A stretch of 64,000 bases of DNA from Spirochaetaceae bacterium UBA1318 (GCA_002307015.1 DBTK01000131.1:723-64722), one strand, 5' to 3'; numbered from the stretch's first letter, positions 2,439 through 57,485 are shown. Translations and numbers: made by a program. The notes: a model not told the origin generated them from the letters alone.

Positions 2439-3761
2439 ATGAGTTCAATCGCCGTCATTGGTACCGGCTATGTCGGCCTCGTGAGCGGGGCCTGTCTCGC
2501 GGATTTCGGGAATACCGTGGTCTGCATGGATACGGACGGGAAGAAGATAGAAGCCCTCAAGAAAGGGGAGATTCCCATCTACGAGCCGGGAATCGAGGAT
2601 ATCGTATCGAGAAATGTGGCGGCCGGGCGACTTTCGTTTTCGACCGACCCGGCTCTGGCCATCAAGGGAGCCGATGCCGTGTTCATCGCGGTGGGCACGC
2701 CCCCCGCGGATGACGGCAGCGCCGACCTCAAGTACGTCGAGTCGGCCGCGAGGAGCGTCGCGAGGAATCTCGAGGGCTACGTCGTCGTCGTGGACAAGAG
2801 CACGGTGCCGGTCGGCACCGCGCGCAAGGTGAAGTCCTGGATAGACGAGGAGCTCTCGCTGCGCGGCGTGAAGCGGGAGTTCGACGTGGTTTCGAACCCC
2901 GAGTTCCTCCGCGAGGGATCGGCCGTTCAGGACTTTACCCACCCGGACCGGGTGGTCATCGGCGCGGAGAGTGATCGGGCGAAGAAGCTGATGAAGGATG
3001 TCTACCGCGTCCTCTACCTCAACGAGACTCCCTATATCGAGACGAACCTCGAGACGGCGGAGATGATCAAGTACGCCTCGAACGCCTTCCTCTCGGTGAA
3101 GATCACCTTCATCAACGAGGTGGCGAACCTCTGCGAGAAGGCCGGGGCCAACGTCCAGGACGTGGCGAGGGCCATGGGAAAGGACGGGAGGATAGGCTCG
3201 AAGTTCCTGCATTCGGGGCCGGGCTACGGCGGTTCCTGCTTTCCGAAGGATACTCTCGCGATGGCGAGGACGGGGCGGGATTTCGGCGAGCCGATGTCCA
3301 TCGTGGAAACGACGATCGAAGCGAACGAGAGGCAGAAGGCCCGCATGGTCGTGAAGATCGAGAAGGGAATCGGCGGCCTCGAGGGCAAGACGGTCGCCAT
3401 CCTCGGCCTCGCCTTCAAGCCGAACACCGACGACATGAGGGAGGCTCCCGCCATCGCCATCTGCCTGGGCCTCGCCTCAGGAGGGGCCAAGATCCGGGCC
3501 TGCGACCCGGTCGCCGGGAAGGAAGCGGCCTGGCGTCTCGCCTCCATCAAGGATTCGATCTATTTCGCCAGGGACGAGTACGACGCCATCCAGGGCGCCG
3601 ACGCCGTCGTCATCGTGACCGAATGGAACCAGTACCGGAATCTCGACCTCGCAAAGGTGAAGACTCTTCTTTCCTCGCCCAACTTCTTCGACCTCAGGAA
3701 CATCTACAAGAGAAGCGATCTCGAGGCAATGGGCTTCCGGTATTTCGCCGTCGGACAGTGA
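2439..3761 (+). CDS. ugd: UDP-glucose 6-dehydrogenase
   Basis: 440 aa with N-terminal Rossmann motif IGTGYVGLVSGACLADFG. The catalytic Cys region GPGYGGSCFPKD and overall collinearity fit the UDP-glucose/GDP-mannose dehydrogenase family. Confidence 0.93.
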   Translation: MSSIAVIGTGYVGLVSGACLADFGNTVVCMDTDGKKIEALKKGEIPIYEPGIEDIVSRNVAAGRLSFSTDPALAIKGADAVFIAVGTPPADDGSADLKYVESAARSVARNLEGYVVVVDKSTVPVGTARKVKSWIDEELSLRGVKREFDVVSNPEFLREGSAVQDFTHPDRVVIGAESDRAKKLMKDVYRVLYLNETPYIETNLETAEMIKYASNAFLSVKITFINEVANLCEKAGANVQDVARAMGKDGRIGSKFLHSGPGYGGSCFPKDTLAMARTGRDFGEPMSIVETTIEANERQKARMVVKIEKGIGGLEGKTVAILGLAFKPNTDDMREAPAIAICLGLASGGAKIRACDPVAGKEAAWRLASIKDSIYFARDEYDAIQGADAVVIVTEWNQYRNLDLAKVKTLLSSPNFFDLRNIYKRSDLEAMGFRYFAVGQ

Positions 3762-3777
3762 GCCAGACGCGCCGGAC

Positions 3778-4422
3778 CTAGCTCTTTTCGGCCTGCCGGC
3801 GTCCGGCGGATTTGAGCTTCATTCGCGTCTTGATGAACCGGATGACGTAGAAGGGTATCCTGAGCGGCGAGGCGACGAGCTTCTGCACGCGGACGAACCA
3901 GTCGACCCGGGCCGGATAGTCGGCGATGGGGATGTTCCAGGTCTTGCCGTAGAGGTTCCGCATGAGGCCGATGGGATCGGCGGGAACCCGGAACTTCGCA
4001 CCGAGGAAGTCGACGTCCTCGAGGGAGTCGAGGAAACGTGGAGGGACGGTGGTTCTCTCGTCGAGCTGCCAGAGCCTGCCCTTGAAAAGGTGGCGTACCT
4101 TCCTCGCCGGAAACAGGTCGATATCGACTCCGTCCCGTATCACCTTGTAGATATACCCGTCTTTCCGGTTGTAGATCCCGTCGCCGATGAACTCGAACCC
4201 CTTCGCCTCGAAGCTGGGTTTGAGGGCGAGAAACCGGTCGACGTCGGAGAAATAAAAGCCGACGTCGATATCGTTATCGTGCGGTATGAAGTCCCTTTCC
4301 CTGACGGCACCCAGAAGCGTACCCCAGTGCAGGAACATGGGAATGCCGGCGCCTTCCAGAATATCCCGGGTGTCGACAAGATTCCTGAGTCCGATGGTTT
4401 TATCGAAAAATGATTGTTTCAT
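3778..4422 (-). CDS. LicD-family phosphotransferase (phospho-alcohol transferase to glycan)
   Basis: LicD signature LHWGTLLGAVRERDFIPHDNDIDVGF. I place the start at ATG 4422 (MKQSFF), preceded by AAGGA. The track's upstream extension to 4518 has no support. Confidence 0.75.
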   Translation of the reverse strand: MKQSFFDKTIGLRNLVDTRDILEGAGIPMFLHWGTLLGAVRERDFIPHDNDIDVGFYFSDVDRFLALKPSFEAKGFEFIGDGIYNRKDGYIYKVIRDGVDIDLFPARKVRHLFKGRLWQLDERTTVPPRFLDSLEDVDFLGAKFRVPADPIGLMRNLYGKTWNIPIADYPARVDWFVRVQKLVASPLRIPFYVIRFIKTRMKLKSAGRRQAEKS

Positions 4423-4558
4423 AATAATCCTTCTTGATTTTATCATGTGTATATGAGGAATACAACATGGGTTGGTGAGAAAAGCGTTAAATGAATATTT
4501 TTCCCTCTTGCGGGCCATGTCCTAACTTGCTAACATAGGCACGCACACGAGGAAGAAT

Positions 4559-5584
4559 ATGGACAGAATGATCATCATGGACCGCAACGAGAACAATTAC
4601 GGTCCTTCGCCGAAATGCCACGACGTCCTTGAACACATGGACATGGAGTATTTCTCCACATATTCACGGGATTATCCCCGACGCATCAAGTCGAGGATAG
4701 CGGAACAGTACGGCATCGCGCCCGAGCAGGTGGCGATCGGGTACGGCGCCGAGGATCTGCTGAAGCAGATCATTTACTGGGCCGCGGGAAAGGGCGCCGA
4801 TATCGCCGTTCCGAATATGTCGTGGTGGTATTACAAGCACATCGTCAAGGAAATCGACGGCAATCTCGTCGAATACCACATGACTGAAGGCGAGGAGAGC
4901 TGGGCTTTCGACGATGACGAGATCTTCCGGATTCTCGCCGCGAAGCCCCGGGTTTTCATCCTCGCGTCCCCCAACAATCCGACGGGCAACTACCTCGAAC
5001 CGGACCGGATTCGCCGGTACCTCGCGGCCAAGGCGCCCGAGACGGTGATGGTCCTCGACGAGGCCTACTGGGGCTTCGGCGCCCCGCCCTTTCCCGAACG
5101 GGAAATCGCGTGCTGGCCCGGGTTGATCGTGCTGCGCACGATGTCCAAGTACTACGCACTCGCCGGCCTCCGGATCGGCTTCGCCTTTCTGGGATCCGGG
5201 CTCGACGAGTACGTGGTGCACAACAGCAAGTACCTCGGGTTCAACCGCATTTCCGAGGAGATGCTGTTCGCCTCCCTCGATCATGAATCGGACCTCTACT
5301 ACCGCGAACGGGCCGCGATGATCATCGAGGACGGAAAGATGCTGTTCCAGGAACTCCGCGCCATGGGGTTCAAGCCCTTCCGGACCTGCGCCAACTTCAT
5401 TCTCGCCCGCCTGCCCGCTGCCGACTTCAACCTGCTCAAGGAGCGGGTGCTCACGAAGGGCATGGTGATAAAGTTTTTCAGCGAACCCATTTTCGAAAAC
5501 TGCGTCCGAATCTCCATCGGAACCCGCGACCAGAATTACTTGCTGGTGGAGATCATGAAAGACATTCTCGCCAACCGCGGTTGA
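4559..5584 (+). CDS. Class I/II PLP-dependent enzyme, HisC/CobD-like (aminotransferase or phospho-amino-acid decarboxylase)
   Basis: Motifs NENNYGPSP, ASPNNPTG and the PLP-lysine region RTMSKYYALAGLRIGF. GAGGAAG lies 5 nt upstream of the ATG. Confidence 0.75.
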   Translation: MDRMIIMDRNENNYGPSPKCHDVLEHMDMEYFSTYSRDYPRRIKSRIAEQYGIAPEQVAIGYGAEDLLKQIIYWAAGKGADIAVPNMSWWYYKHIVKEIDGNLVEYHMTEGEESWAFDDDEIFRILAAKPRVFILASPNNPTGNYLEPDRIRRYLAAKAPETVMVLDEAYWGFGAPPFPEREIACWPGLIVLRTMSKYYALAGLRIGFAFLGSGLDEYVVHNSKYLGFNRISEEMLFASLDHESDLYYRERAAMIIEDGKMLFQELRAMGFKPFRTCANFILARLPAADFNLLKERVLTKGMVIKFFSEPIFENCVRISIGTRDQNYLLVEIMKDILANRG

Positions 5585-5585
5585 G

Positions 5586-6302
5586 ATGCAGGCCGTTCTC
5601 CTTGCCGCCGGCATGGCCACGAGGCTCAGGCCGCTGACCGACCTGAGCCCGAAATGCCTCCTCGACGTGGGCGGAAAGTCCATCCTCCAGCGCGCGGTCG
5701 AGAACCTCGTCGCCGTCGGGGTGGACGAGGTCGTCATCGTCACGGGCTATCGTCCCGGCATGATACGGGCCCACATGGCCGAGAGGTTTCCCTCGCTGCG
5801 TGTCCGCTGGATCAACAACGACCGCTATGCCGAGACGAACAACGCCTACTCCCTCATGCTCGCCGAACCGGAGGCGCCGGGGGAATTCCTCCTTCTGGAC
5901 AGCGACATCCTCTTCCCCGCCGAACTGATCCGATCCCTCCTCGCCTGTCCCGATCGGCCCTGCATCGCCCTCCACCGGCACGAGTGCGGCGAGGAGGAGA
6001 TGAAGATCGTGTGCGGCGAGTCGGGCTGGGTGACGGATGTGGCAAAGACCATCGATCCGCGCAAGGCTGCGGGGGAGTCGATCGGATTCGAGCTTTTCGA
6101 CCGGAGTTCCCGGGATCGCCTTTTCGAGACGCTGCGGCGCCGAATAGTGGACGAGAAGCGAGAGAATGAATATTATGAAGCCTCGTTCAAGGAAATGGTG
6201 GATCACGGGTTCGGCTTCCGCACCGTGGACATCTCCTCCTGGCCGGCGACCGAAGTCGATACGATCGAGGACCTGGAACGGGCACGATCCCTGTTTCGCT
6301 GA
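5586..6302 (+). CDS. LicC-type nucleotidyl(cytidylyl)transferase
   Basis: LLAAGMATRLRPLT NTP-binding loop. NDRYAETNNAYSL closely resembles pneumococcal LicC NDKYADYNNFYSL. C-terminal EVDTIEDLERA. The start lies 2 nt after the previous stop. Confidence 0.8.
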   Translation: MQAVLLAAGMATRLRPLTDLSPKCLLDVGGKSILQRAVENLVAVGVDEVVIVTGYRPGMIRAHMAERFPSLRVRWINNDRYAETNNAYSLMLAEPEAPGEFLLLDSDILFPAELIRSLLACPDRPCIALHRHECGEEEMKIVCGESGWVTDVAKTIDPRKAAGESIGFELFDRSSRDRLFETLRRRIVDEKRENEYYEASFKEMVDHGFGFRTVDISSWPATEVDTIEDLERARSLFR

Positions 6303-15702: not shown

Positions 15703-16860
15703 ATGAACATCGTCGGCATTTTTTTCAACAACGAACTGCGCACCGGCGGCCACGTCCGCTACCTCGAACTCATGGAAGGCCTCGCCTCGGGGGGACACCG
15801 GGTGGTCGTCCTTCTCAATTCCCTGCTCGCCTACGAGCCGAGGGTCTTCGAGGCCCTGAGGTTTCCCGTCCGCTACAAACGGAAGGGCTTCCCTCCCGCC
15901 TCGGCCGTTTTCGCCGCGGAGGCGGGAAGGAGGGCGAAGGAGTTGGGGGCGAGGATGGGCGGAAAGGTCGATGCGGTCCTCGTGTTCGGCGAGACCCACG
16001 TCGCCGCGGGCGAGAAACTCAAACGGGCCTTCGGCTGTCCCCTTATCTATGGCCACCGCTCGAACACGGCGAGGGAGTACCTCACCTACCTCGACGAGAA
16101 GGGACATTCGGCCATCGAGCGGGCACGGTTTCGCCTCGGCCTCCTCTGGTCGGTCCGCCAGGAGCGGAACATCGCCAGGGCGGCCGACATCGTCGTGTTC
16201 CAGAGCTCCTTCGACATGAACGATTTCCTCTCCCGGGTTCCCGTTGCGCGGGGCAGGACCTTCGTGGTCCGCGGGGACATCCTGGGTCCCCGGTTCAAGC
16301 CCGAGTGGGCCGGCTCAAACCGGAGCGAACGCCTCGAGAAGATCGCTTTCATGGGCACCCAAGGGCCGCGGAAGGGGGTGGATTACCTCATCGGGGCGAT
16401 TGCCCTGCTCAAGGAGAGGGGGTTCGGGCAGCTGCGCTTCGAGATCTGCGGGCCAGGGCAGAGGACCGAGGAGCTCGAGGCGAGGCTTGCGGCGGACGGA
16501 ACGGCCGGGATGGCGACAATCCACGGCAGGGTTCCCGACGCCTTCCCCGTGGTTTCGGCCTGCGACCTCCTCGTCGTCCCCTCCCTTTTCGACAGCTACC
16601 CGAACTCCGTGCTCGAGGCCCTGCACGCCGGCACCCCGGTCATCGGCAGTCGGGTCGGCGGCATACCGGACATGCTTTCCCATGACGAGCTCCTCTTCCC
16701 GCCGATGGACGCGAAGGCCATCGCCGACATCATCGAGGGCTGCGTCCGCGATCCCGGTCATTACCGCAAACTCAAGTCGCTCTGCGCCGGACGAGCCGAT
16801 TATTTCAGGTTCGACTGGGCCGCCGAATGGGCGAAGCTCGTTCCCCTGTCAAAGAACTGA
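15703..16860 (+). CDS. GT4-family glycosyltransferase
   Basis: Start MNIVGIFFNNELRTGGHVRY. C-terminal motif VVPSLFDSYPNSVLEALHAGTPVIGSRVGGIPDM. Confidence 0.8.
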   Translation: MNIVGIFFNNELRTGGHVRYLELMEGLASGGHRVVVLLNSLLAYEPRVFEALRFPVRYKRKGFPPASAVFAAEAGRRAKELGARMGGKVDAVLVFGETHVAAGEKLKRAFGCPLIYGHRSNTAREYLTYLDEKGHSAIERARFRLGLLWSVRQERNIARAADIVVFQSSFDMNDFLSRVPVARGRTFVVRGDILGPRFKPEWAGSNRSERLEKIAFMGTQGPRKGVDYLIGAIALLKERGFGQLRFEICGPGQRTEELEARLAADGTAGMATIHGRVPDAFPVVSACDLLVVPSLFDSYPNSVLEALHAGTPVIGSRVGGIPDMLSHDELLFPPMDAKAIADIIEGCVRDPGHYRKLKSLCAGRADYFRFDWAAEWAKLVPLSKN

Positions 16861-18042
16861 TTGATTGAGAATGCTCGAAGGAAGACTCGTTATGAACTCA
16901 AGATAATTTCCGGGGTGGATCGTTTTGAAGCCGGCTTCGGGATACGTATTCGTCCAGCTTGCGGGCGGTTTGATGTTCTTTTCCTTCAGCTTGAACTCGA
17001 ATGCATCAAGATGTCCGTCCGAGTCCTCCACATAATCGGCTTCGGCCCCAGTGTGTGTGCGCCAGAACCATGAGCCGCCGTAGAATCCCCGATAGGCATT
17101 GAACTTCATGCGCTCGGAGACCAGAAAGTTTTCCCAAAGCAAGTCTCGATCGCCCCTGAACTGCCATTCCTTGAAATCTTCTATGAGCGCATTTCGGACT
17201 CCGTTATCGTAGAAATAAACCTTGTCTTTCTTGGTGACTTCCTTTCGAAGGTTCCGGCTGAATCCGCCCAATCGAAATACGACAAAGGCCTTTTCGAGTA
17301 AATCGATGTAGGAAATGACTGTATCGGCGCTCATGCCGGTCTGCCGTCCCAATTCCTGGTATGATACCTCGGAACCGATCTGATACGCCAAAAGGCGCAG
17401 AAGGTCGCGAAGTTTCCTTGAGTTATGGATTCCTCCCAATTCAAGAACGTCCTTGTACAGGTAGGCCGATGACAACTAGATAAGGTGATGGATTCTATCC
17501 TCTCTCGAAGGCATGGAAAGAAGAGCCGGATAAGAGCCCAGGGTGAGCGTTTCTTCTCGATGCCCATCCACTTCGAATGAGTTTTCGAAAGCCGCGTATT
17601 CAGAAAAAGAGATCGGGTAGAGCGTGAAGGTCCATGTTCTTCCGGTCAGGGACTCCTTGGTTCTTCCCGCAAGATCGAGGCTTGATGATCCGGTAATAAA
17701 CAAGGTTCCGGGAAAATCGGAATCGTGGAGAAGCTTCAACGAAAGCCCGATATTCAGAATTTTCTGGGCCTCATCGATCAGTATAAGATCATAACCCGAA
17801 ACAATTCCCCGTATTCGCTGCAGATCCCGGGATTCCCACACCGCCTGGACTCGAGGATCCTCCCCATTTATCATGAGCGATCGTAGCCCTGTTTCGGAAA
17901 TGACTTTTTTCGCCAGTGTCGTTTTTCCAACCTGTCGAGGACCGTAGAGCATGACGATTCGGCGATCGTTCCGGAGCTTTTCAAGGATTACTGGTTCCAA
18001 AGAACGCGGAATATTCATATCATGATTATGGCGTGATTTCAT
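16849..18042 (-). pseudogene. AAA-family ATPase (AAA_14 + DUF4143 architecture) interrupted by a single in-frame TAG
   Basis: The two adjacent track ORFs (17476-18042 and 16849-17475) are in the same frame, separated only by TAG at 17476-17478 (...EDRIHHLI*LSSAYLYKDVLELGG). Walker A LYGPRQVGKTTLA. The likely true start is MNIPRS at 18018. Joined length is about 388 aa, typical for the family. G+C is visibly lower than the flanks. Confidence 0.75.
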
Positions 18043-48659: not shown

Positions 48660-49784
48660 ATGAGGAAAATACTGGTAGTCGACGACGATCTTTCCCTCCA
48701 TGAGTCCCTGGTCGGGATCCTGAGGGAAGAGTGGGTCCTGACCTCCTGCACCGGCGCGTCGAAGGCGATACGCCTCCTCAGGGAGGAGACGTACGATGCG
48801 GTTCTGCTCGATATAGCCCTTCCCGACCAGTCCGGCCTGACCGTCCTCGACGAGAGGCGGAGCTTCAAGTCCCAGAGCCCGATCATCATGCTCACGGCCT
48901 ATTCCGACGTATCGACCATATTCGAGGCGTCCAAGCGCGGCGCCGACGACTTTCTCGCCAAACCCTATTCGATCGACTGCCTCAAGAATACCCTCCGTGC
49001 CGCCGCCACCGGTTATGCCGCCAGGCGCGCCGCCGAGGAGAGCGAGTTCGGCGACTTCGTCGGCATGAGCGATTCCATCGTCGCGATAAAGCGGCAGGTC
49101 GGCATCTACGCCCGGGTGAACCACACGGTCCTCATCTGCGGGGAAAGCGGGACCGGCAAGGAGGTCGTCGCGAAGGCGATCCATCGGCTGTCCCCGCGGA
49201 GGTCAGGCAAGCTTATACGGTTGAACATAGCCGCCATTCCCCTCAACATGCTTGAATCCGAGCTTTTCGGGAGCGAGCGGGGCGCCTTCACGGACGCGGT
49301 ATCGCGTCCCGGGTGCTTCGAGGAGGCTGCCGGCGGAACCCTCTTTCTCGACGAGATCGGCGACCTCGATGAGGGCGCCCAGATCAGGCTGCTCAGGGTT
49401 CTCGAGGACAAGTCGGTTCGGAGGCTGGGCGGGCAACGCGACATTCCCGTGGATGTTCGCATCATCTTCGCGACCAACCAGGACCTGCCCGGGATGGTGA
49501 AGGCCCATAAATTTCGCCAGGACCTGTTCTACCGGGTGAATATCCTCCCGATCACCCTTCCGCCGCTCAGGGAACGCGAGGGTGATGTGCTCGTCCTTGC
49601 CGAGTATTTTCTCAACGGGTGCGGAAAGACCAGCCACGATATCGATGACCTGGCGATCGAACGTCTTCTGGCCCACGATTGGCCCGGAAACGTCAGGGAA
49701 CTGAAGGCCGTCATCGAGCGCGCGGCCCTGTTGAGCGGTTCCGGAAGGATCCGTTCCGAACACATCCTGACGGTCCGGTTCTAG
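48660..49784 (+). CDS. Response regulator with sigma-54-interaction AAA+ domain but no DNA-binding domain
   Basis: Receiver (ILVVDDD..., LLDIALPDQSG), Walker A GESGTGKE, Walker B LFLDEIG and ESELFGSERGAFTDA. The protein ends 30 aa after NVRELKAVIERA at a TAG that overlaps a convergent gene. Confidence 0.85.
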   Translation: MRKILVVDDDLSLHESLVGILREEWVLTSCTGASKAIRLLREETYDAVLLDIALPDQSGLTVLDERRSFKSQSPIIMLTAYSDVSTIFEASKRGADDFLAKPYSIDCLKNTLRAAATGYAARRAAEESEFGDFVGMSDSIVAIKRQVGIYARVNHTVLICGESGTGKEVVAKAIHRLSPRRSGKLIRLNIAAIPLNMLESELFGSERGAFTDAVSRPGCFEEAAGGTLFLDEIGDLDEGAQIRLLRVLEDKSVRRLGGQRDIPVDVRIIFATNQDLPGMVKAHKFRQDLFYRVNILPITLPPLREREGDVLVLAEYFLNGCGKTSHDIDDLAIERLLAHDWPGNVRELKAVIERAALLSGSGRIRSEHILTVRF

Positions 49785-51201: not shown

Positions 51202-51957
51202 ATGGTTTCAACCGGATCGGCTGATGGCAGGAAACTGGCTGGCAGGAAGGCCGTCGTGATCGGCGGCACCGGGGGCATAGGCTCCGCGATGAGCCTCGCC
51301 CTGGCCGAGGCCGGGGCCCATGTTTTCGTGACCGGGGGAAGGTCCCTCCCAAGGCTCGAATCCCTTCTGGAGAGGATCCGCGGTATCGGTGGCTCGGCCG
51401 ATGGCGAGCTTCTCGCGATCGACACTCCCGCCGACGTTTCTTCGGCGGCGGAACTCGCCGCGAATGCGGATATCCTCGTCGTCGCGTACGGGCCCTTCCT
51501 GCAGAAGCCCCTTGCCGAGACTGAGGCCGATGACTGGGGACGAATGGCCCTCCTGGACCTCGCGCTTCCGGGAAGCTGCGTTTCATCCGCACTGCCCGGC
51601 ATGGTCTCCAGGGGCTACGGCCGCATCGTGCTTTTCGGCGGCACGGGAACCGATCTTCCGCGGGCGGTGGAGACGAATTGCGCCTATGCCGCCGCGAAGG
51701 CGGGACTCTCAACCCTCGTCAAGTCGGTGGCCGCCTCCTTTGGACCGAAAAACGTGGCGGCCCTGCTCATCTGCCCCGGGTTCACCGATACCGAGTATCT
51801 TTCCCCGGATGAGAAACGGGAGCTTGAGGCACGCATGCCCGGCGGAAGGCTCATCAATACCGGGGAAATTGCCGGAATCGGCGTCGAATTTGTCACGCAG
51901 GAGAGGGCCGTCGTGAACGGAGCCAGCCTTTCCGTCGATTGCGGAAAAAAATACTGA
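51202..51957 (+). CDS. Short-chain dehydrogenase/reductase
   Basis: VIGGTGGIGSA cofactor loop and YAAAKAG catalytic motif. The start is chosen at ATG 51202; a GTG at 51172 is also possible. Confidence 0.8.
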   Translation: MVSTGSADGRKLAGRKAVVIGGTGGIGSAMSLALAEAGAHVFVTGGRSLPRLESLLERIRGIGGSADGELLAIDTPADVSSAAELAANADILVVAYGPFLQKPLAETEADDWGRMALLDLALPGSCVSSALPGMVSRGYGRIVLFGGTGTDLPRAVETNCAYAAAKAGLSTLVKSVAASFGPKNVAALLICPGFTDTEYLSPDEKRELEARMPGGRLINTGEIAGIGVEFVTQERAVVNGASLSVDCGKKY

Positions 51958-52018
51958 TCCGGCCCCCCTAGACTTCCGAAAATGGGTTATATTGGTGGAT
52001 GATACGGCGTAAGGACAT

Positions 52019-52047
52019 TTGACAAATGCATTGAAGCCTAATAATAT
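52019..52047 (+). promoter_or_regulatory. Near-consensus sigma-70 promoter for the STAS-PspA operon
   Basis: TTGACA (52019-52024), 17-nt spacer, TAATAT (52042-52047). AAAGGAG lies 5 nt before ATG 52096. Confidence 0.55.
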
Positions 52048-52095
52048 ACTTAAATTAAAGTATTGTTCTTGTCGGATGGAGTCTAAAGGAGCGCC

Positions 52096-52647
52096 ATGAC
52101 CAATAACGAGATCGTACCGGGTTTCGATGACGAAAAAGACGATAGCCTGAAGATTCGGCTTCAGAAAGCCGACAACGCGAATGGCTGTCTGATCCTTTTC
52201 CTCACCGGCTATATCGATACCTACAACTCAAACTTTTTTCAGAAGCGCGTTTCCAAGGCCATCGAGGCGGGATTCATCAGGCTGATCTTTCACTGCGGCG
52301 GCCTCAACTACGTCTCCTCAACCGGCATCGGTTCGTTCACGGCGTTCCTGAAAAATGTGAAGCCCCGGGGGGGGGACATCGTCCTTCTTGAAATACAGCC
52401 GAAGGTATATGAGGTTTTCCAGCTTCTTGGATTTTCCCAATTCTTCAACATCAAGGACAATCTGGACGAGGCGGTCGACTTTTTCCTGCGTGGGGATCAG
52501 ACGGGCAAGACGGATATCTTCCCGAAAATTTTCGCCTGTCCCATCTGCTCGAAAAAACTGAAAGCGACGAAAGCGGGACGTTTCCGGTGTTCGGAATGCA
52601 AGACGATTCTCGCGATCGACGCGAACGGTCAGGTCTTCCTGGGATAA
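52096..52647 (+). CDS. STAS-domain (anti-sigma-factor-antagonist-like) protein fused to a C-terminal zinc ribbon
   Basis: LFLTGYIDTYN...HCGGLNYVSSTGIGSF (conserved Ser position)...VFQLLGF. The C-terminus has CPICSKK...CSECK (two CxxC pairs). Confidence 0.75.
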   Translation: MTNNEIVPGFDDEKDDSLKIRLQKADNANGCLILFLTGYIDTYNSNFFQKRVSKAIEAGFIRLIFHCGGLNYVSSTGIGSFTAFLKNVKPRGGDIVLLEIQPKVYEVFQLLGFSQFFNIKDNLDEAVDFFLRGDQTGKTDIFPKIFACPICSKKLKATKAGRFRCSECKTILAIDANGQVFLG

Positions 52648-52696
52648 CCCTCACCATTCCGTGCAATCAGCCACTCGTCGTATCAAGGAGGACGCG

Positions 52697-53083
52697 ATGC
52701 CCGAGTTGAGCAAGATAGAAACGTACCTCGTCGACCTAAACCTGAAGTACAGAGAGATCGCTCCGAACGGATGGCTGATCAACGACGACTCGAGGGGGCT
52801 GGAAGAGACTCTCGTGATGTTCGTGGCGCCTCTGGTCATCGTGCGCGTGAAGATCATGGATTTGCCGACGTCGCGCCGCGAGGAATTCTACGAGCAGCTC
52901 CTGCGGTACAATGTCGTCGATCTGGTTCACGGGGCCTACGGGATCGACGGGAGCGACGTGATCCTGATCGACACCCTGGAATACGATTCGTTGAAGAAAG
53001 AGGAGCTGGAGGCATCGCTCGATGCGGTCGCTCTCGCCCTCAATAGACATTATCCAGTCCTTTCAAAATATAGAGACAAGTAA
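52697..53083 (+). CDS. Small acidic protein, YbjN/T3SS-chaperone-like (PspA-associated)
   Basis: Start at ATG 52697 after AAGGAGG. 128 aa. The family assignment rests on general resemblance only. Confidence 0.4.
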   Translation: MPELSKIETYLVDLNLKYREIAPNGWLINDDSRGLEETLVMFVAPLVIVRVKIMDLPTSRREEFYEQLLRYNVVDLVHGAYGIDGSDVILIDTLEYDSLKKEELEASLDAVALALNRHYPVLSKYRDK

Positions 53084-53094
53084 GGGAGGCCGGC

Positions 53095-53793
53095 ATGGGA
53101 ATTTTCCAGCGATTAAAAACGGTCGTTTCGTCAAACATCAACGACCTGATCAATAAATCCGAGAATCCGGAGAAGATGCTCAATCAGCTCCTGATCGACA
53201 TGAACGAGCAGATGATCGAGGCGAAAAAGGCGGTCGCCATGGCCATCGCCGACGAGAAGAAGCTCGAGCGGGAGATGATCGCCCAGCAGGACGCCTCGAA
53301 GGATTGGGAACGGAAGGCCATGCTTGCCGTTCGCGCCCAGAAGGACGACCTGGCGAGGGAAGCCCTGCTGCGCAAGCAGGAAGCCGAGAATTTCTACCTC
53401 GAGTACAAGAAACAGTGGGAAGCCCAGAAGGAATCCGTCGTCAAGCTCAAGGAATCCCTCCGTGAGCTCCAGAGCAAGATCGACGAGGCAGCACGGAAGA
53501 AAAACCTGCTTATCGCGAGGGCGAAGCGCGCCGAAGCCCAGCAGAAGATCCAGAGCACGATGTCGAGCGTTTCCAACACGAGCGCCTTCGAGGCCTTCGA
53601 CCGCATGGCGAGCAAGGTCGACCAGATCGAAGCCGAGGCCGAGGCGAGCAAGGAACTCGAGGATGCGACGAGCGGGGCAGACCTCAACAAGCAGTTCAAG
53701 GAATTGGAAAAGTCCTCTTCCAGCGCCGACCTCCTTCTCGATGAGCTGAAAGCCAAGATGATCGAAGAGGATGCCGGAAAGACCGGCCGATAG
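53095..53793 (+). CDS. pspA: PspA/IM30-family protein
   Basis: MGIFQRLKTVVSSNINDLINKSENPEKMLNQLLIDMNEQ is the canonical PspA N-terminus. The rest of the 232 aa is coiled coil. Confidence 0.9.
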   Translation: MGIFQRLKTVVSSNINDLINKSENPEKMLNQLLIDMNEQMIEAKKAVAMAIADEKKLEREMIAQQDASKDWERKAMLAVRAQKDDLAREALLRKQEAENFYLEYKKQWEAQKESVVKLKESLRELQSKIDEAARKKNLLIARAKRAEAQQKIQSTMSSVSNTSAFEAFDRMASKVDQIEAEAEASKELEDATSGADLNKQFKELEKSSSSADLLLDELKAKMIEEDAGKTGR

Positions 53794-53826
53794 TACCGCC
53801 GCCTGAAGCCGGCCTGCCCGCTCGTC

Positions 53827-54462
53827 ATGGTAGTCAATGCCGTTTCGATCGATGCGATGACCCGGGCCCTGCTCGGGCGGTTTCCCGATCCCACGCTTCC
53901 GATATCCTACGTTTTTTCCGAAGAGCCGCGTCCCGAAGCGGCTCCGGATTTCTACCTGATTCCCGCCGAAAAGCTCATTTCCCTGTCGGAGGGGCCGGCC
54001 ATGCTGCCTTATGCGCACGTGGTCGCTTTCGGCCCGGTGGAGGAGCTTCCGACGGCATTTTCTCTCGGCTGCGCCGATTACCTGAAGACCCCCTGGACGG
54101 TCCGCGAGTTCGCGTTCCGTCTGGAGCGGCTGTGTGGAAGGCTGCCTGCCGTTCATGAAGGGGAGTTCAGGCTCGAGGGTTTGAGCCTTTCCGGAAATGG
54201 CCGCAGGACCCTGTTGACCAGGGAAGAACGTGCGATTTTGGTTGTTCTGGCCAAACAGGTCCCCGAACCGGTATCCCGGTCTTCCCTCTACCGTTCCTAC
54301 CATCCCGACGTCTCACGGGCGTCAAATTCCCGGTCTGTCGACATGCATATCCATGAACTGAGGGCGAAAATAGGCCTCCTTGCGAACACAACTCGCTATG
54401 ATGAAGTGATCTATACGGCCCGGCCGATCGGATACGGTTTACGCCAATTCATATGTTGTTAA
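53827..54462 (+). CDS. OmpR/PhoB-type winged-helix DNA-binding protein with degenerate receiver-like N-terminus
   Basis: GCADYLKTPWTVREFAFRLERL resembles receiver alpha4-beta5 (GADDYLxKPF). The C-terminus LTREERAILVVLAKQ...SVDMHIHELRAKIG...IYTARPIGYGL is Trans_reg_C-like. No clear phospho-acceptor Asp context. Confidence 0.65.
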   Translation: MVVNAVSIDAMTRALLGRFPDPTLPISYVFSEEPRPEAAPDFYLIPAEKLISLSEGPAMLPYAHVVAFGPVEELPTAFSLGCADYLKTPWTVREFAFRLERLCGRLPAVHEGEFRLEGLSLSGNGRRTLLTREERAILVVLAKQVPEPVSRSSLYRSYHPDVSRASNSRSVDMHIHELRAKIGLLANTTRYDEVIYTARPIGYGLRQFICC

Positions 54463-54467
54463 CAACC

Positions 54468-54700
54468 TGTGGATAAAATTCACGGTTTTCCACAGCAAGC
54501 AAAGATCGGAATCGAATGTTAACGAATGTATGTGGATAAATAAGCCGTGTGCTTGTGGATAGATTGATATCTTGTTTTAATGTATAGAGATGCAAAGATT
54601 TTCCATATAAATATCAAATAAGTATTTTATGAGGTATCTGTCAAACTGCCTATGTGGAAAAGAAATATCAAGTTTCGGGTAATTGACAGCTTGTGGATAA
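54468..54700. promoter_or_regulatory. Cluster of six DnaA-box-like 9-mers around an AT-rich stretch
   Basis: TGTGGATAA at 54468, 54531 and 54692 is the perfect complement of TTATCCACA. TTTTCCACA at 54486, TGTGGATAG at 54554 and TGTGGAAAA at 54653 each have one mismatch. 54563-54640 is 18/78 G+C by hand count. Confidence 0.7.
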
Positions 54701-54768
54701 CTTGTTGAATGATCTCCCCGCCATCGTTTCCGCTTGCAAACGTAAAACTCGCATGGTACGATAAAAGC

Positions 54769-55716
54769 ATGAAAAAGGTGTTGAAGCTGGTGCCGTTTTT
54801 TTTCATTTCCCTTTTGTCATGCATCGTTCTTGGAATAACCGGTTTCATATTGATGAATTTCGCCTCGATGGCGCCATTTCACCTGTCCTTTGTCCTGAGG
54901 GCCTTGAAATCGAGCCTCCCCCTTTCGGTTTTGGTATCCATGCTCGTCGTGATGCTCTGCTGGTTCGGACTCCGCCCGAACCGGTTCCTTTCCTACCTCG
55001 TCGTGGCTATCCTGGGGTTTCTTTTCCTCGCCGGCGGATCCTGGTTTTTTGCCAGGATTCCTGATACCCACGCCTCATCCTCGGGAAGTACGGGCATTAC
55101 GGCGGCGCGTATAGCCTACGCCGAGGGGATAGCCTTCTATCCGATGGGTGTTTCCCACGACTCGGTCGGCCAGACCCTGGTTGCCGACCTGAATCGAACC
55201 GATTCGCCGCGGCTGACCCTGTACCGCGGAGGAAGCTTCGACCGATCGAAGGGGGAGCTGAGGCTGGGAAAAGGCTCGGACGGGGCTCCCGTCGATATCC
55301 CCGTGGGCGGACCGGCAAAGGCTTCCGACGCTTCTGGCGATGCCGTCTTCGCCCGCTTCCTTTCCGATGCGGGCGCCCTGAACGCTTCGCTCTATTTGGC
55401 AGCCTCCGGACCGATCGGCCGCTATCTTCTTTTCTGCGGCGCAATCGTCATCCTTTTCCTCTCTCTCTGGTTTTTCGCACGACTGACCGCCTGGGCGCTT
55501 TTCAACGCCGCCCTCGCATTCATCGCCTTCAGGCTTTCGCTTGCGGTCTTTTCCGCGCTGAATGACCAGGCATTTCGGCGGATCGCCATTTCAGTTGCCC
55601 CCTTCCTCGCGGTTCCCTTCGCATTCCCCGCCGTGTTCGCCGGTATCGGTTTTCTGCTCATCCTCTGCGATGTGCTTCTTTCCTTTCTCGGCGCCAGACG
55701 GAGGAGCGAGCCATGA
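54769..55716 (+). CDS. Membrane protein with 3TM - periplasmic domain - 3TM layout (LptF/LptG-like topology)
   Basis: Three N-terminal helices, a hydrophilic segment of about 110 aa, then three C-terminal helices. Start taken at MKKVLKLVPFFF; ATG 54709 is also possible. Confidence 0.45.
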   Translation: MKKVLKLVPFFFISLLSCIVLGITGFILMNFASMAPFHLSFVLRALKSSLPLSVLVSMLVVMLCWFGLRPNRFLSYLVVAILGFLFLAGGSWFFARIPDTHASSSGSTGITAARIAYAEGIAFYPMGVSHDSVGQTLVADLNRTDSPRLTLYRGGSFDRSKGELRLGKGSDGAPVDIPVGGPAKASDASGDAVFARFLSDAGALNASLYLAASGPIGRYLLFCGAIVILFLSLWFFARLTAWALFNAALAFIAFRLSLAVFSALNDQAFRRIAISVAPFLAVPFAFPAVFAGIGFLLILCDVLLSFLGARRRSEP

Positions 55717-57485
55717 CCTCGGGAAGGAAACTCGCCAATACCCTGATCGGGGCCTATCTGCTGCTCGCCTCGGTCTGTTTCGCCGCCGCCGTGCTCGGCT
55801 ATGCGCAGCGGGAGACCTTGCCGATATTCTATTGGAAGTGGATAGCCGCGAAGACCTTTGAGCTTTTCATCCGGTACATCCTGCCCGTCCACCTTACCGC
55901 CGTCGCCCTCGCGATCAGCGTCCAGCCCCGGGGGGCCTCGACCTCGTTGATTGCCGCCGTCCAGGGCCAGCTCCTCGTCATCATCGCGGTGGCGGCCCTG
56001 TTCACCTTCCTCGTGGAATACTCCCTTCCGGCGACCTACGCCGACGAGAGTCGGATGGCCTCGATCACGACGGCCTTCAGGAATTCCTATGACGATGCGG
56101 ATGCCGCGTTCAGAAAAGCGGACTATGAAACCGCCGTGACGAAGATCCTGGTCTGCCTCGGCATCGATCCGGCCAATCCCGCGGCTCGGGATCTTCAGGT
56201 GAGGATACTCCGAAAGAAGGCGCTCGCGGCTTCTCCTTCGGGGCTTCCCGTCCTATCGGAAGCCGGAACGGCCGGGACCGGGGCCGTCGGCTTGACGGCG
56301 AGACCTGCCGCGAAAGCCGAAGAAAGCGCGAATGGCGACTCGTCCTTCGTCGCGGCCGATGGCCGGTCGGCCAACCCGGCCCTCGATCTGTTCAATCAGG
56401 CCCAGTCGTTCTACGATCACAACGATTTTTACGCCGCTCATCTCTATGCGACCCGGTCATTCGCCCTCGATCCGGCGAGGATCGACGCGCAGAGGCTGGC
56501 GGCCCAGGCCTGGCAGCGGATTTCGGATCTCGCTCCCTCGAAGGACTCGCCCGAACGGGACCTCTTCGCCAGGAAGATGGAAGGCTACGCGGCCTATGCC
56601 TCGAACGACCCCCTCGCCGCCTTCTATGTCTTCGCGAAACTAAAACCGGCCTACCCGAACGATCCCGACGTGGTGAAGTACTACGCCCTGAGCCTCGAGG
56701 CGGTAAAGAAGGTTTCCTTCTTCACCGATGAGATGTCCTCGTTCGACGCGATCCTGGGCAACGAGAACATCCTCTTCCGGAACGCCGTCGCCGACGGAAG
56801 GACGGAGATGGTCTATGTCGGGAAGGAAGCGGCCATCGGCGGCGAGGAATACTACCGCGACATCGAGGTCATGAGGTTCGATTCGTCGGGGGTGAAGGAA
56901 CATTTCTCGGCCCGGTACGGGAAACGCATCAAGGACGAGCTGCTGCTTTTCGCCATCGACCGGAAGGATCCCACGGTATTCTTCAAGCCCAAGTACTACG
57001 TGGGAAATCCCTCCTCTCCCGTGCCGTCCATGCTGAAGATTGGTTTCACCTCCGGGGAGTTCGAGCTGATCGCGAAAAGCCGCCGGCCCCTGGCTCAATC
57101 GAACATCAGCGAGCTTTTCACCATGGAACCGGTCATGGCGAGGGCAGGCCTTGACGGCGGCGAGGTGAAACGGGAAATACTCTACCGGTTCTTTCTCCCC
57201 GTCGAGCTGCTTTTCCTTTCCATCTGCGCCGTCATCGCCGCCCTGCGCTTCAGGTCCCGTTCCGAGGAACGTCCTCCCTTTTTCCAGCTTCTCGTCGGCG
57301 CCGGGTGCTTCGCCCTCGTTTCCTGGAGGGCTGTCGAGGCCTGGACGGCCCTGAACCGATCCCTGATCGACACCCTCTCCGTGACGGAGAATTTCGCCCA
57401 GTCCCAGGCCGTTTTCATCGCGGTTCAGGGCGCTCTCGTCGCCCTGACGGTCATCGTTCTCGCCGGCCAACGAACGGACGCCTGA
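55713..57485 (+). CDS. Membrane protein, 3TM - long periplasmic (TPR-like plus beta-rich) region - 3TM
   Basis: 590 aa. The start overlaps the upstream stop (ATGA). Helical-repeat-like region YETAVTKILVCLGIDPANP...FYDHNDFYAAHLYATRSFALDP. Three C-terminal helices. Confidence 0.45.
   Translation: MTSGRKLANTLIGAYLLLASVCFAAAVLGYAQRETLPIFYWKWIAAKTFELFIRYILPVHLTAVALAISVQPRGASTSLIAAVQGQLLVIIAVAALFTFLVEYSLPATYADESRMASITTAFRNSYDDADAAFRKADYETAVTKILVCLGIDPANPAARDLQVRILRKKALAASPSGLPVLSEAGTAGTGAVGLTARPAAKAEESANGDSSFVAADGRSANPALDLFNQAQSFYDHNDFYAAHLYATRSFALDPARIDAQRLAAQAWQRISDLAPSKDSPERDLFARKMEGYAAYASNDPLAAFYVFAKLKPAYPNDPDVVKYYALSLEAVKKVSFFTDEMSSFDAILGNENILFRNAVADGRTEMVYVGKEAAIGGEEYYRDIEVMRFDSSGVKEHFSARYGKRIKDELLLFAIDRKDPTVFFKPKYYVGNPSSPVPSMLKIGFTSGEFELIAKSRRPLAQSNISELFTMEPVMARAGLDGGEVKREILYRFFLPVELLFLSICAVIAALRFRSRSEERPPFFQLLVGAGCFALVSWRAVEAWTALNRSLIDTLSVTENFAQSQAVFIAVQGALVALTVIVLAGQRTDA

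Follow-up and report, generated by a model that had tools for sequence, protein, structure and literature searches.

A conserved spirochaete operon in which a CesT–PspA cassette lies between a STAS–zinc-ribbon protein and an atypical OmpR-type regulator

How is a PspA protein controlled in a spirochaete, and which of the neighbouring genes belong to its circuit? Most of what is known about PspA/IM30 systems comes from Proteobacteria, Firmicutes and Actinobacteria. The question is raised by a four-gene locus at positions 52019-54462 of a 64,000-nt stretch of DNA from Spirochaetaceae bacterium UBA1318 (GCA_002307015.1 DBTK01000131.1:723-64722), which is referred to here as the window. In this locus, a STAS domain fused to a zinc ribbon (STAS-ZnR), a small CesT/Tir-type chaperone-like protein, PspA and an atypical OmpR/PhoB-type regulator are encoded one after another. 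A previous interpretation of the same DNA, hereafter the sequence-only reading, had proposed a partner-switching style of control centred on PspA. Our analysis revealed that the four genes form a real operon conserved across spirochaetes, which links PspA and the chaperone to two uncharacterised regulators, and that the STAS-ZnR protein is not a private PspA regulator.

All four open reading frames (ORFs 1-4) lie on the plus strand and span 52096-54462, exactly where the sequence-only reading had placed them. The STAS-ZnR gene (ORF1, 52096..52647, 183 aa; Pfam STAS plus a Cys4 zinc ribbon) is followed by the CesT/Tir-type chaperone-like gene (ORF2, 52697..53083, 128 aa, ATG at 52697; PF22550), the PspA/IM30 gene (ORF3, 53095..53793, 232 aa; PF04012) and the gene of the atypical OmpR/PhoB-type regulator (ORF4, 53827..54462, 211 aa; Trans_reg_C plus a degenerate receiver). 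The tight spacing claimed for these genes was confirmed: the gaps are 49, 11 and 33 nt, and a terminator consensus scan of the plus strand from 51800 to 54900 returned no terminator-like site, none between the operon genes. AGGAG-type ribosome-binding sites precede ORF1, ORF2 and ORF3. In the orthologous loci described below, the gaps are often 7-50 nt, and some called ORFs overlap. Downstream of the regulator gene, a ViennaRNA scan for a hairpin followed by a T-run yielded weak candidates in just 9 of 43 loci.

A sigma-70-type promoter is located at 52019..52047 (plus strand) and consists of TTGACA (52019-52024), a 17-nt spacer and TAATAT (52042-52047). Matches of this type occur in the window at chance level (two found, 1.9 expected), and the promoter was therefore taken as real because of its conservation in orthologous loci and not because of the window match alone. 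Of 82 orthologous upstream regions, 81 carry TTGACA without a mismatch, mostly in the form TTTGACAAA-N17-TAnnAT, so that this element of the sequence-only reading held up. The consensus across orthologous loci is aT-TTGACA-AA-N15-TAatAT, with the -10 element at a median distance of 56 nt 5' of the ATG. A second TTGAC-like repeat inside the spacer was considered as an OmpR-type operator and rejected: its distance to the -35 element varies from about 11 to 16 nt, and with so variable a spacing it does not make a credible OmpR-type box. An inverted repeat, ATACTT-N6-AAGTAT (52045-52062), overlaps both the -10 element and the predicted transcription start in the window; it is not conserved in the other loci.

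The conservation of the locus was investigated using one genome per species. At least 495 species carry a relative of ORF1, and the best 80 loci are 80-87% identical in this gene product. Downstream genes were classified with hidden Markov models built from the loci, and 69 species-level loci having at least 2.2 kb of downstream sequence were compared. The full order of STAS-ZnR, CesT, PspA and winged-helix regulator is found in 44 of these loci; CesT is missing in 13, both CesT and PspA in nine, and the regulator in three. PspA thus follows STAS-ZnR in 60 of the 69 loci (87%) and the regulator does so in 66 (96%), and where CesT is absent, PspA often begins just 7-12 nt after the STAS-ZnR gene. 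The loci span the Treponematales (Gracilinema), Winmispirales (Winmispira thermophila) and Spirochaetales (Oceanispirochaeta, Sediminispirochaeta), and the association seen in the window is therefore no chance adjacency. Because PspA and CesT are the variable parts in this census, STAS-ZnR and the atypical regulator constitute the constant frame, and CesT-PspA is a facultative cassette between them. About 16 kb surrounding the operon is syntenic as well, with unrelated genes on both strands (ParA-like, CtpB-like peptidase, WecG, sigma-54 activator and EPSP synthase); SpoU, SDR, CesT and PspA vary in presence within this block, and its order is kept across the three orders.

The components of the locus differ greatly in their rates of change. 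Identity to the window copies is 80-87% for STAS-ZnR, 69-76% for EPSP synthase, 46-77% for PspA, 38-55% for CesT and 25-38% for the regulator. STAS-ZnR is conserved to the same degree in loci without PspA (82-87%) or without the regulator, and when a rough tree was drawn from the adjacent sigma-54 activator, the PspA-less loci were scattered over several places in it. Divergent STAS-ZnR members (46-54% identity) occur in five contexts, all without PspA and without the regulator: overlapping a DSPc-like phosphatase gene, solitary, in an integrase/PIN region, after an SDR gene only, and with two further STAS genes downstream. In the first of these contexts (locus L087), the DSPc-like Cys phosphatase gene (5412-6011, plus strand; E 3e-7, under the Pfam cutoff) overlaps the start of the divergent STAS-ZnR gene by 11 nt, an arrangement that hints at phospho-regulation within the family. 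So far, regulators resembling ORF4, divergent ones included, have been found only directly downstream of STAS-ZnR; word-based searches for regulator relatives gave 9 and 32. Since the regulator has been found only beside STAS-ZnR and STAS-ZnR also occurs in unrelated contexts, the dependence is asymmetric: the regulator belongs to this locus, PspA and CesT are an optional insert, and STAS-ZnR is autonomous. The PspA-centred partner switching proposed earlier is unsupported, given the nine loci that lack PspA and the chaperone and keep STAS-ZnR at 82-87%. It is further weakened by the five divergent contexts without PspA, and by the prior publication of the CesT/Tir-PspA pairing (PMC11237479).

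What kind of protein is STAS-ZnR? The STAS domain covers about residues 18-131 (PF01740, E 1e-21, residues 27-126), and the protein passes the NCBIfam model of the anti-sigma-factor antagonist superfamily (TIGR00377, 58.1 bits against a cutoff of 53.45). It begins with a conserved acidic motif, EIVPGFDDEKDD, and ends with a ribbon formed around CPIC (148-151) and CSEC (165-168), with the cysteines C148, C151, C165 and C168; the predicted fusion of STAS to a CxxC...CxxC ribbon is thus present. In a phmmer search against PDB sequences, residues 31-122 aligned with Bacillus subtilis SpoIIAA (1AUZ). The VSSTG segment pairs with MDSSG of SpoIIAA, so that Ser75 falls on Ser58, the residue that is phosphorylated in SpoIIAA and with which helix 2 starts, in agreement with the earlier claim of a phosphorylatable-Ser context, and Ser75 is accordingly named here as a candidate phosphorylation site. 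The AF2 (AlphaFold2) model has a predicted local distance difference test (pLDDT) score of 90.4; its one uncertain part is the linker 134-139, and the ribbon (144-182) is built of short strands. The top Foldseek match of this model is SpoIIAA bound to its kinase SpoIIAB (E 9e-10, template modelling (TM) score 0.88-0.90, root-mean-square deviation 1.3), followed by RsbV/RsbW (SpoIIAA and RsbV matches together at TM 0.88-0.91), with SulP-type STAS domains and MlaB at much lower ranks. No solved structure chain covering the STAS-ribbon fusion was found among the Foldseek matches.

The sequence of STAS-ZnR is almost fixed. Among 78 distinct species-level sequences, 77 of which share one length, 93 of the 183 positions are invariant. 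Ser74 and Ser75 do not vary in this 78-sequence subfamily and reach at least 90% conservation in the wider family, and the four ribbon cysteines are invariant in 30 aligned wider-family members down to 37% identity. To collect the wider family, representatives of 50%-identity clusters were searched exhaustively without a profile; 181 clusters scored E<1e-30, the majority being about 180 aa long and matching over the whole protein length. A word-based search returned 2786 relatives of ORF1, of which the best 120 are 80-100% identical and almost all exactly 183 aa, with a spirochaete in every source name that gives an organism. Judged from these alignments and models, STAS-ZnR is most likely a Ser75 switch of the SpoIIAA/RsbV class, and its kinase, its phosphatase and its principal partner would be encoded elsewhere.

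ORF4 is the other constant part of the frame. Pfam recognises Trans_reg_C (PF00486, E 3e-11, residues 126-204, 43.5 bits against a cutoff of 26.2) and returned no Response_reg match. The AF2 model (pLDDT 86) contains a receiver-like alpha/beta fold (1-102), which is short at about 102 residues and has a reduced alpha2, and a winged helix (114-205). Over its full length, ORF4 matched OmpR/PhoB regulators in Foldseek, including the atypical GlnR (8hih), RitR (5u8k, 5vfa) and HP1043 (2hqr), and in a sequence search it aligned with PmrA/BasR from residue 66. Compared with canonical regulators, the acidic pair of beta1 is lost, no residue fills the column of the beta3 phospho-acceptor Asp, Ala or Val takes the place of the conserved Thr, and Thr that of the conserved Lys; among 60 homologues, no invariant Asp occurs before residue 84. 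In the absence of a usable phospho-acceptor, and with Thr and Lys replaced, ORF4 was classed from its sequence as an atypical, pseudo-response regulator and not a canonical one. The sequence-only reading had described an OmpR-type winged-helix protein with a degenerate receiver half, and this description was accurate: the receiver-like fold is kept, and the phospho-acceptor Asp is gone.

Between the constant parts lie ORF2 and ORF3. ORF2 had been described as a small acidic YbjN/chaperone-like protein; the acidic character (predicted isoelectric point 4.7) and the chaperone-like nature stand, and the family assignment is better given as CesT_Tir_1 (PF22550, E 1e-24) than as YbjN, which matched weakly and under the cutoff (E 0.007) and names the clan. 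The gene is positioned directly 5' of pspA on the same strand, with an 11-nt gap in the window, and this arrangement recurs in 47 of the 69 loci; ORF2 is a probable PspA partner. ORF3 is PspA, as had been stated: PspA_IM30 (PF04012) matched at full length (residues 2-221) with E 2e-49 and 168.7 bits against a cutoff of 33.9. It falls under the NCBIfam equivalog cutoffs for proteobacterial PspA and for LiaH (LiaH 81 bits against 380). The N-terminal 50 residues, which include the MGIFQRLKTVVSSNINDLI segment, are strongly conserved in 73 homologues. Members of the PspA/IM30 family bind membranes through an amphipathic helix at this end and have a coiled-coil hairpin from which polymers of the ESCRT-III kind are built.

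The established regulators of PspA were looked for in the window. Pfam scans of its approximately 50 genes revealed no histidine kinase and no LiaF/Toastrack domain, and, among ORFs of about 70 aa or more, no match to PspB or PspC. A scan for the sigma-54 promoter consensus TGGYAY-N5-TTGCW gave nothing in the window and a single match among the orthologous loci (an identical sequence in L005 and L006). The only bacterial enhancer-binding protein of the window is encoded 2.3 kb upstream (48660..49784, plus strand) and consists of a receiver, a sigma-54 AAA+ domain and a lid without a helix-turn-helix (HTH) or other DNA-binding domain; it is not PspF-like, and it is a syntenic neighbour, encoded no more than 3.5 kb upstream of the operon in 47 of 52 loci. 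PspF-style control was rejected on the grounds that no sigma-54 promoter motif was found in the window and that the nearby activator has a receiver and lacks an HTH. The earlier statement that none of the classical Psp or Lia regulators is present therefore stands for PspF-type, PspBC and Lia components, and it needs to be corrected by adding this receiver-AAA+ activator.

The surroundings of the operon contain further conserved elements. In 27-33 of 82 loci, an oriented (G)CCGATA motif precedes the STAS-ZnR gene (L003-L006, L010, L013, L015, L020, L023, L031-L034, L041-L046, L050 and L051, and further L053, L056, L065, L072, L076, L078, L082 and L086), the window being without such a site. 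In 13.4 kb of upstream regions, GCCGATA was found 27 times on the plus strand and once on the minus strand, with a T at -21 in 89%, and it is positioned either just 5' of the sigma-70 promoter or about 50 nt 3' of it. The motif resembles the mapped sigma-28 promoter PflaB2 of flaB2 in Treponema denticola, which has CCGATAA as -10 and TTAA as -35 element (PMC9481697). These sigma-28-like motifs suggest that the operon may be linked to the flagellar regulon in some lineages.

On the 3' side, a 246-nt AT-rich gap follows ORF4 and contains an element (54468..54700, plus strand) with DnaA-box-like repeats. Six of the ten window matches to the DnaA-box consensus TGTGGATAA fall in this gap, including all three perfect ones. 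The orthologous gaps (L005, L008, L009, L019, L028-L031 and many others) usually carry two plus-strand boxes 211-224 bp apart, at a density of 5.0 per kb against 0.155 per kb elsewhere, and each site is often an 11-bp-period tandem, TGTGGATAAyyTGTG. The boxes are kept in two loci without the regulator (L038, L078) and are missing in four with it (L066, L074, L080, L081). As operators of the regulator they are disfavoured, because their presence is independent of the regulator gene, and this uncoupling makes DnaA or another conserved factor likelier. A DnaA-regulated promoter and a DnaA-titration-type site are the candidates for the function of the element. A structured RNA was also looked for in the gap, where no Rfam match was obtained and the fold z-score was -1.1. 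As genomic context, two membrane-protein genes (54709..57485, plus strand; 335 and 590 aa, LptF/LptG-like) follow the operon in nearly all loci; PF03739 (LptF_LptG) matched the 591-aa Gracilinema and the 562-aa L093 orthologues, and the window copies gave no Pfam match. In L093, an extracytoplasmic function (ECF) sigma factor gene and two small genes (3446-4777, minus strand) are located between the regulator and the LptF/LptG-like genes.

Elsewhere in the window, positions 1-37120 hold a polysaccharide/capsule-type cluster with GNVR, SLBB, UDP-glucose dehydrogenase, LicD, Wzi-like, glycosyltransferase, DegT, FdtA and sugar transferase genes. The stretch at 19.0-24.3 kb has a GC content of 0.39-0.52 against about 0.61 elsewhere, which suggests horizontal acquisition. 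Amid the glycosyltransferase genes, an in-frame TAG (17476-17478) interrupts an AAA_14 plus DUF4143 ATPase gene (16849-18042, minus strand; 50% GC), which is probably a pseudogene acquired from a foreign source.

How might the parts of the operon work together? Our preferred reading, which is held tentatively, is that of a sigma-70-driven Spirochaetia operon in which the regulatory pair forms the constant frame, PspA a facultative cassette, and STAS-ZnR the tie-in to partner switching. A single strong sigma-70 promoter would co-express all four genes. The CesT-like protein would keep PspA ready, and PspA would bind and repair the inner membrane. The regulator is probably locus-specific, because it has been found in this locus only; as it would not be switchable by Asp phosphorylation, its input would have to come from a protein partner, for which STAS-ZnR is the only constant candidate. 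STAS-ZnR itself may act as a Ser75 phospho-switch served by a kinase and a phosphatase encoded elsewhere, its near-invariant surface may serve a highly conserved partner outside the operon, and it would in this way tie the operon to a cell-wide partner-switching circuit that is not private to PspA. Several observations weigh against this reading. The Pfam scans found neither an HATPase_c/RsbW kinase nor a PP2C phosphatase in the 64-kb window, as the sequence-only reading had noted; no conserved operator was found at the promoter in the orthologous loci; and co-transcription and autoregulation of the four genes are predictions. Most of the conserved residues of ORF4 (G69, G81, D84, P89, E94, L95 and R98) belong to the beta5/alpha5 motif that response regulators have in general. 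STAS-ZnR lacks the regulator in three of the 69 loci and in all five divergent contexts, and a near-invariant protein and a regulator with 25-38% identity make an odd pair for a direct complex. Moreover, the whole 16-kb block is syntenic, so the conserved adjacency is weaker evidence and reflects partly low rearrangement. An extended form of the same idea, in our view unlikely, makes STAS-ZnR a near-invariant Spirochaetia-wide signalling hub, a switch of the anti-sigma-antagonist type with a zinc ribbon and with no kinase gene beside it, that would act on the pseudo-receiver and/or on FlgM/sigma-28, as HsbA does in Pseudomonas, and would couple late flagellar genes to PspA protection in bacteria with flagella inside the periplasm; the sigma-28-like promoters of about one third of the orthologous loci would then close a feedback loop.

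The evidence was also considered under other explanations. STAS-ZnR may be an autonomous cell-wide factor of the anti-sigma-antagonist type, acting for example on an RsbW-like kinase or on FlgM/sigma-28, which shares a strong promoter with its neighbours and makes no direct contact with them. Its conservation irrespective of PspA or the regulator, its divergent members in unrelated contexts, the mismatched evolutionary rates, the synteny of the entire block and the (G)CCGATA motifs in 27-33 of 82 loci all fit this explanation, which is nevertheless doubtful, though a good deal less so than those that follow: the regulator type is seen only beside STAS-ZnR, the gaps are very short with some called ORFs overlapping, and the order is kept across three orders while SpoU, SDR, CesT and PspA come and go. 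That STAS-ZnR is instead dedicated to PspA, binding it or the chaperone according to Ser phosphorylation or zinc/redox state and so replacing PspF/PspBC, appears improbable. PspA does follow in 60 of 69 loci, often after 7-12 nt when CesT is absent, and the window holds no other Psp regulator and no sigma-54 promoter. Against these points, the nine loci without PspA and CesT keep STAS-ZnR and the regulator with unchanged conservation and lie in several places of the rough adjacent-gene tree, divergent STAS-ZnR genes have no PspA neighbours, and STAS-ZnR is far more conserved than PspA. The two downstream membrane-protein genes, whose orthologues match LptF_LptG, and the presence of MlaB among the structural matches (ranks 47 and 50) raise the idea of a lipid/lipopolysaccharide transport module in which STAS-ZnR would be an MlaB-like accessory of the permeases and PspA a membrane guard. 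This is very unlikely: with E ~1e-3, the matches to MlaB are much weaker than those to SpoIIAA/RsbV (E 1e-9, TM 0.9), the phospho-Ser motif is one that characterises antagonists, no ATP-binding cassette ATPase gene lies within the block, an AT-rich gap of 240-380 bp separates operon and permease genes, and in loci such as L084 and L092 STAS-ZnR and the regulator are without adjoining permeases. The least credible explanation is that four unrelated genes lie together by chance and are not co-transcribed, since the chance-level promoter match within the window alone is countered by an order and a promoter kept in dozens of species whose neighbouring proteins are just 25-50% identical.

The locus provides a defined, widely conserved candidate circuit for PspA control in spirochaetes. 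Across three orders, conservation of the 183-residue STAS-ZnR protein exceeds that of the EPSP synthase encoded nearby, and such conservation usually marks a central cellular partner. Because the locus is present in cultivable species, Gracilinema caldarium and Winmispira thermophila among them, the predictions made here are testable. If STAS-ZnR acts on the pseudo-receiver or on FlgM, partner switching would gain a new class of target.

Comparison with known systems places the operon more precisely. In the PspF-PspA circuit of Escherichia coli and the ClgR-PspA-PspM-PspN circuit of Mycobacterium, PspA feeds back on the regulator of its operon by direct binding. The present locus resembles them in being a pspA operon with its own transcription regulator; it differs in that the window has no sigma-54 promoter, PspF-type AAA+-HTH protein, PspB, PspC or PspM, and in that the regulator is an OmpR-type pseudo-response regulator retained when PspA is absent. 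From the Lia type (LiaIH-LiaFSR) it is distinguished by the lack of a LiaS-type histidine kinase and of LiaF in the window and by a PspA that does not satisfy the LiaH model. STAS partner switches outside sigma control are represented by HsbA-FlgM (Pseudomonas), SypA-SypE (Vibrio) and BtrV (Bordetella). With the SpoIIAA/RsbV antagonists, STAS-ZnR shares a fold that superposes on that of SpoIIAA in the SpoIIAA-SpoIIAB complex (TM 0.9) and a serine, Ser75, at the phosphorylated position; unlike them, it carries a C-terminal Cys4 ribbon and an acidic N-terminal motif, is unusually fixed in length and sequence, and has no kinase, PP2C or target sigma factor in its operon or the window. ChxR is an atypical, phosphorylation-independent OmpR/PhoB regulator, and ORF4 shares with HP1043, GlnR and RitR a receiver-like fold plus winged helix without a usable phospho-acceptor, its receiver being shorter (about 102 residues), fast-evolving and encoded downstream of STAS-ZnR.

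Our literature search returned no paper on a spirochaete STAS-PspA operon and no study of the STAS-ZnR protein. Popp et al. (2022; PMC9239133) reported, without further detail, that pspA of Spirochaetota tends to adjoin DNA-binding/HTH or other regulatory genes. Ravi et al. (2024, mSystems; PMC11237479) described the CesT/Tir-PspA dyad (yjfI-yjfJ type), interpreted it as a non-ATPase chaperone with its effector, and found such dyads adjoining band-7/flotillin, AAA+ ATPase, polyamine or YjfL genes. Neither the text of the latter paper nor its accessible supplement refers to STAS, and the survey by Popp et al. does not do so either. The likeness to the dyad is a small gene of the CesT/Tir superfamily immediately 5' of pspA, and the difference is that the pair is here inserted between a STAS-ZnR gene and the gene of an atypical OmpR-type regulator. 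The CesT-PspA dyad is thus already known, and what is new is its position between STAS-ZnR and a pseudo-response regulator.

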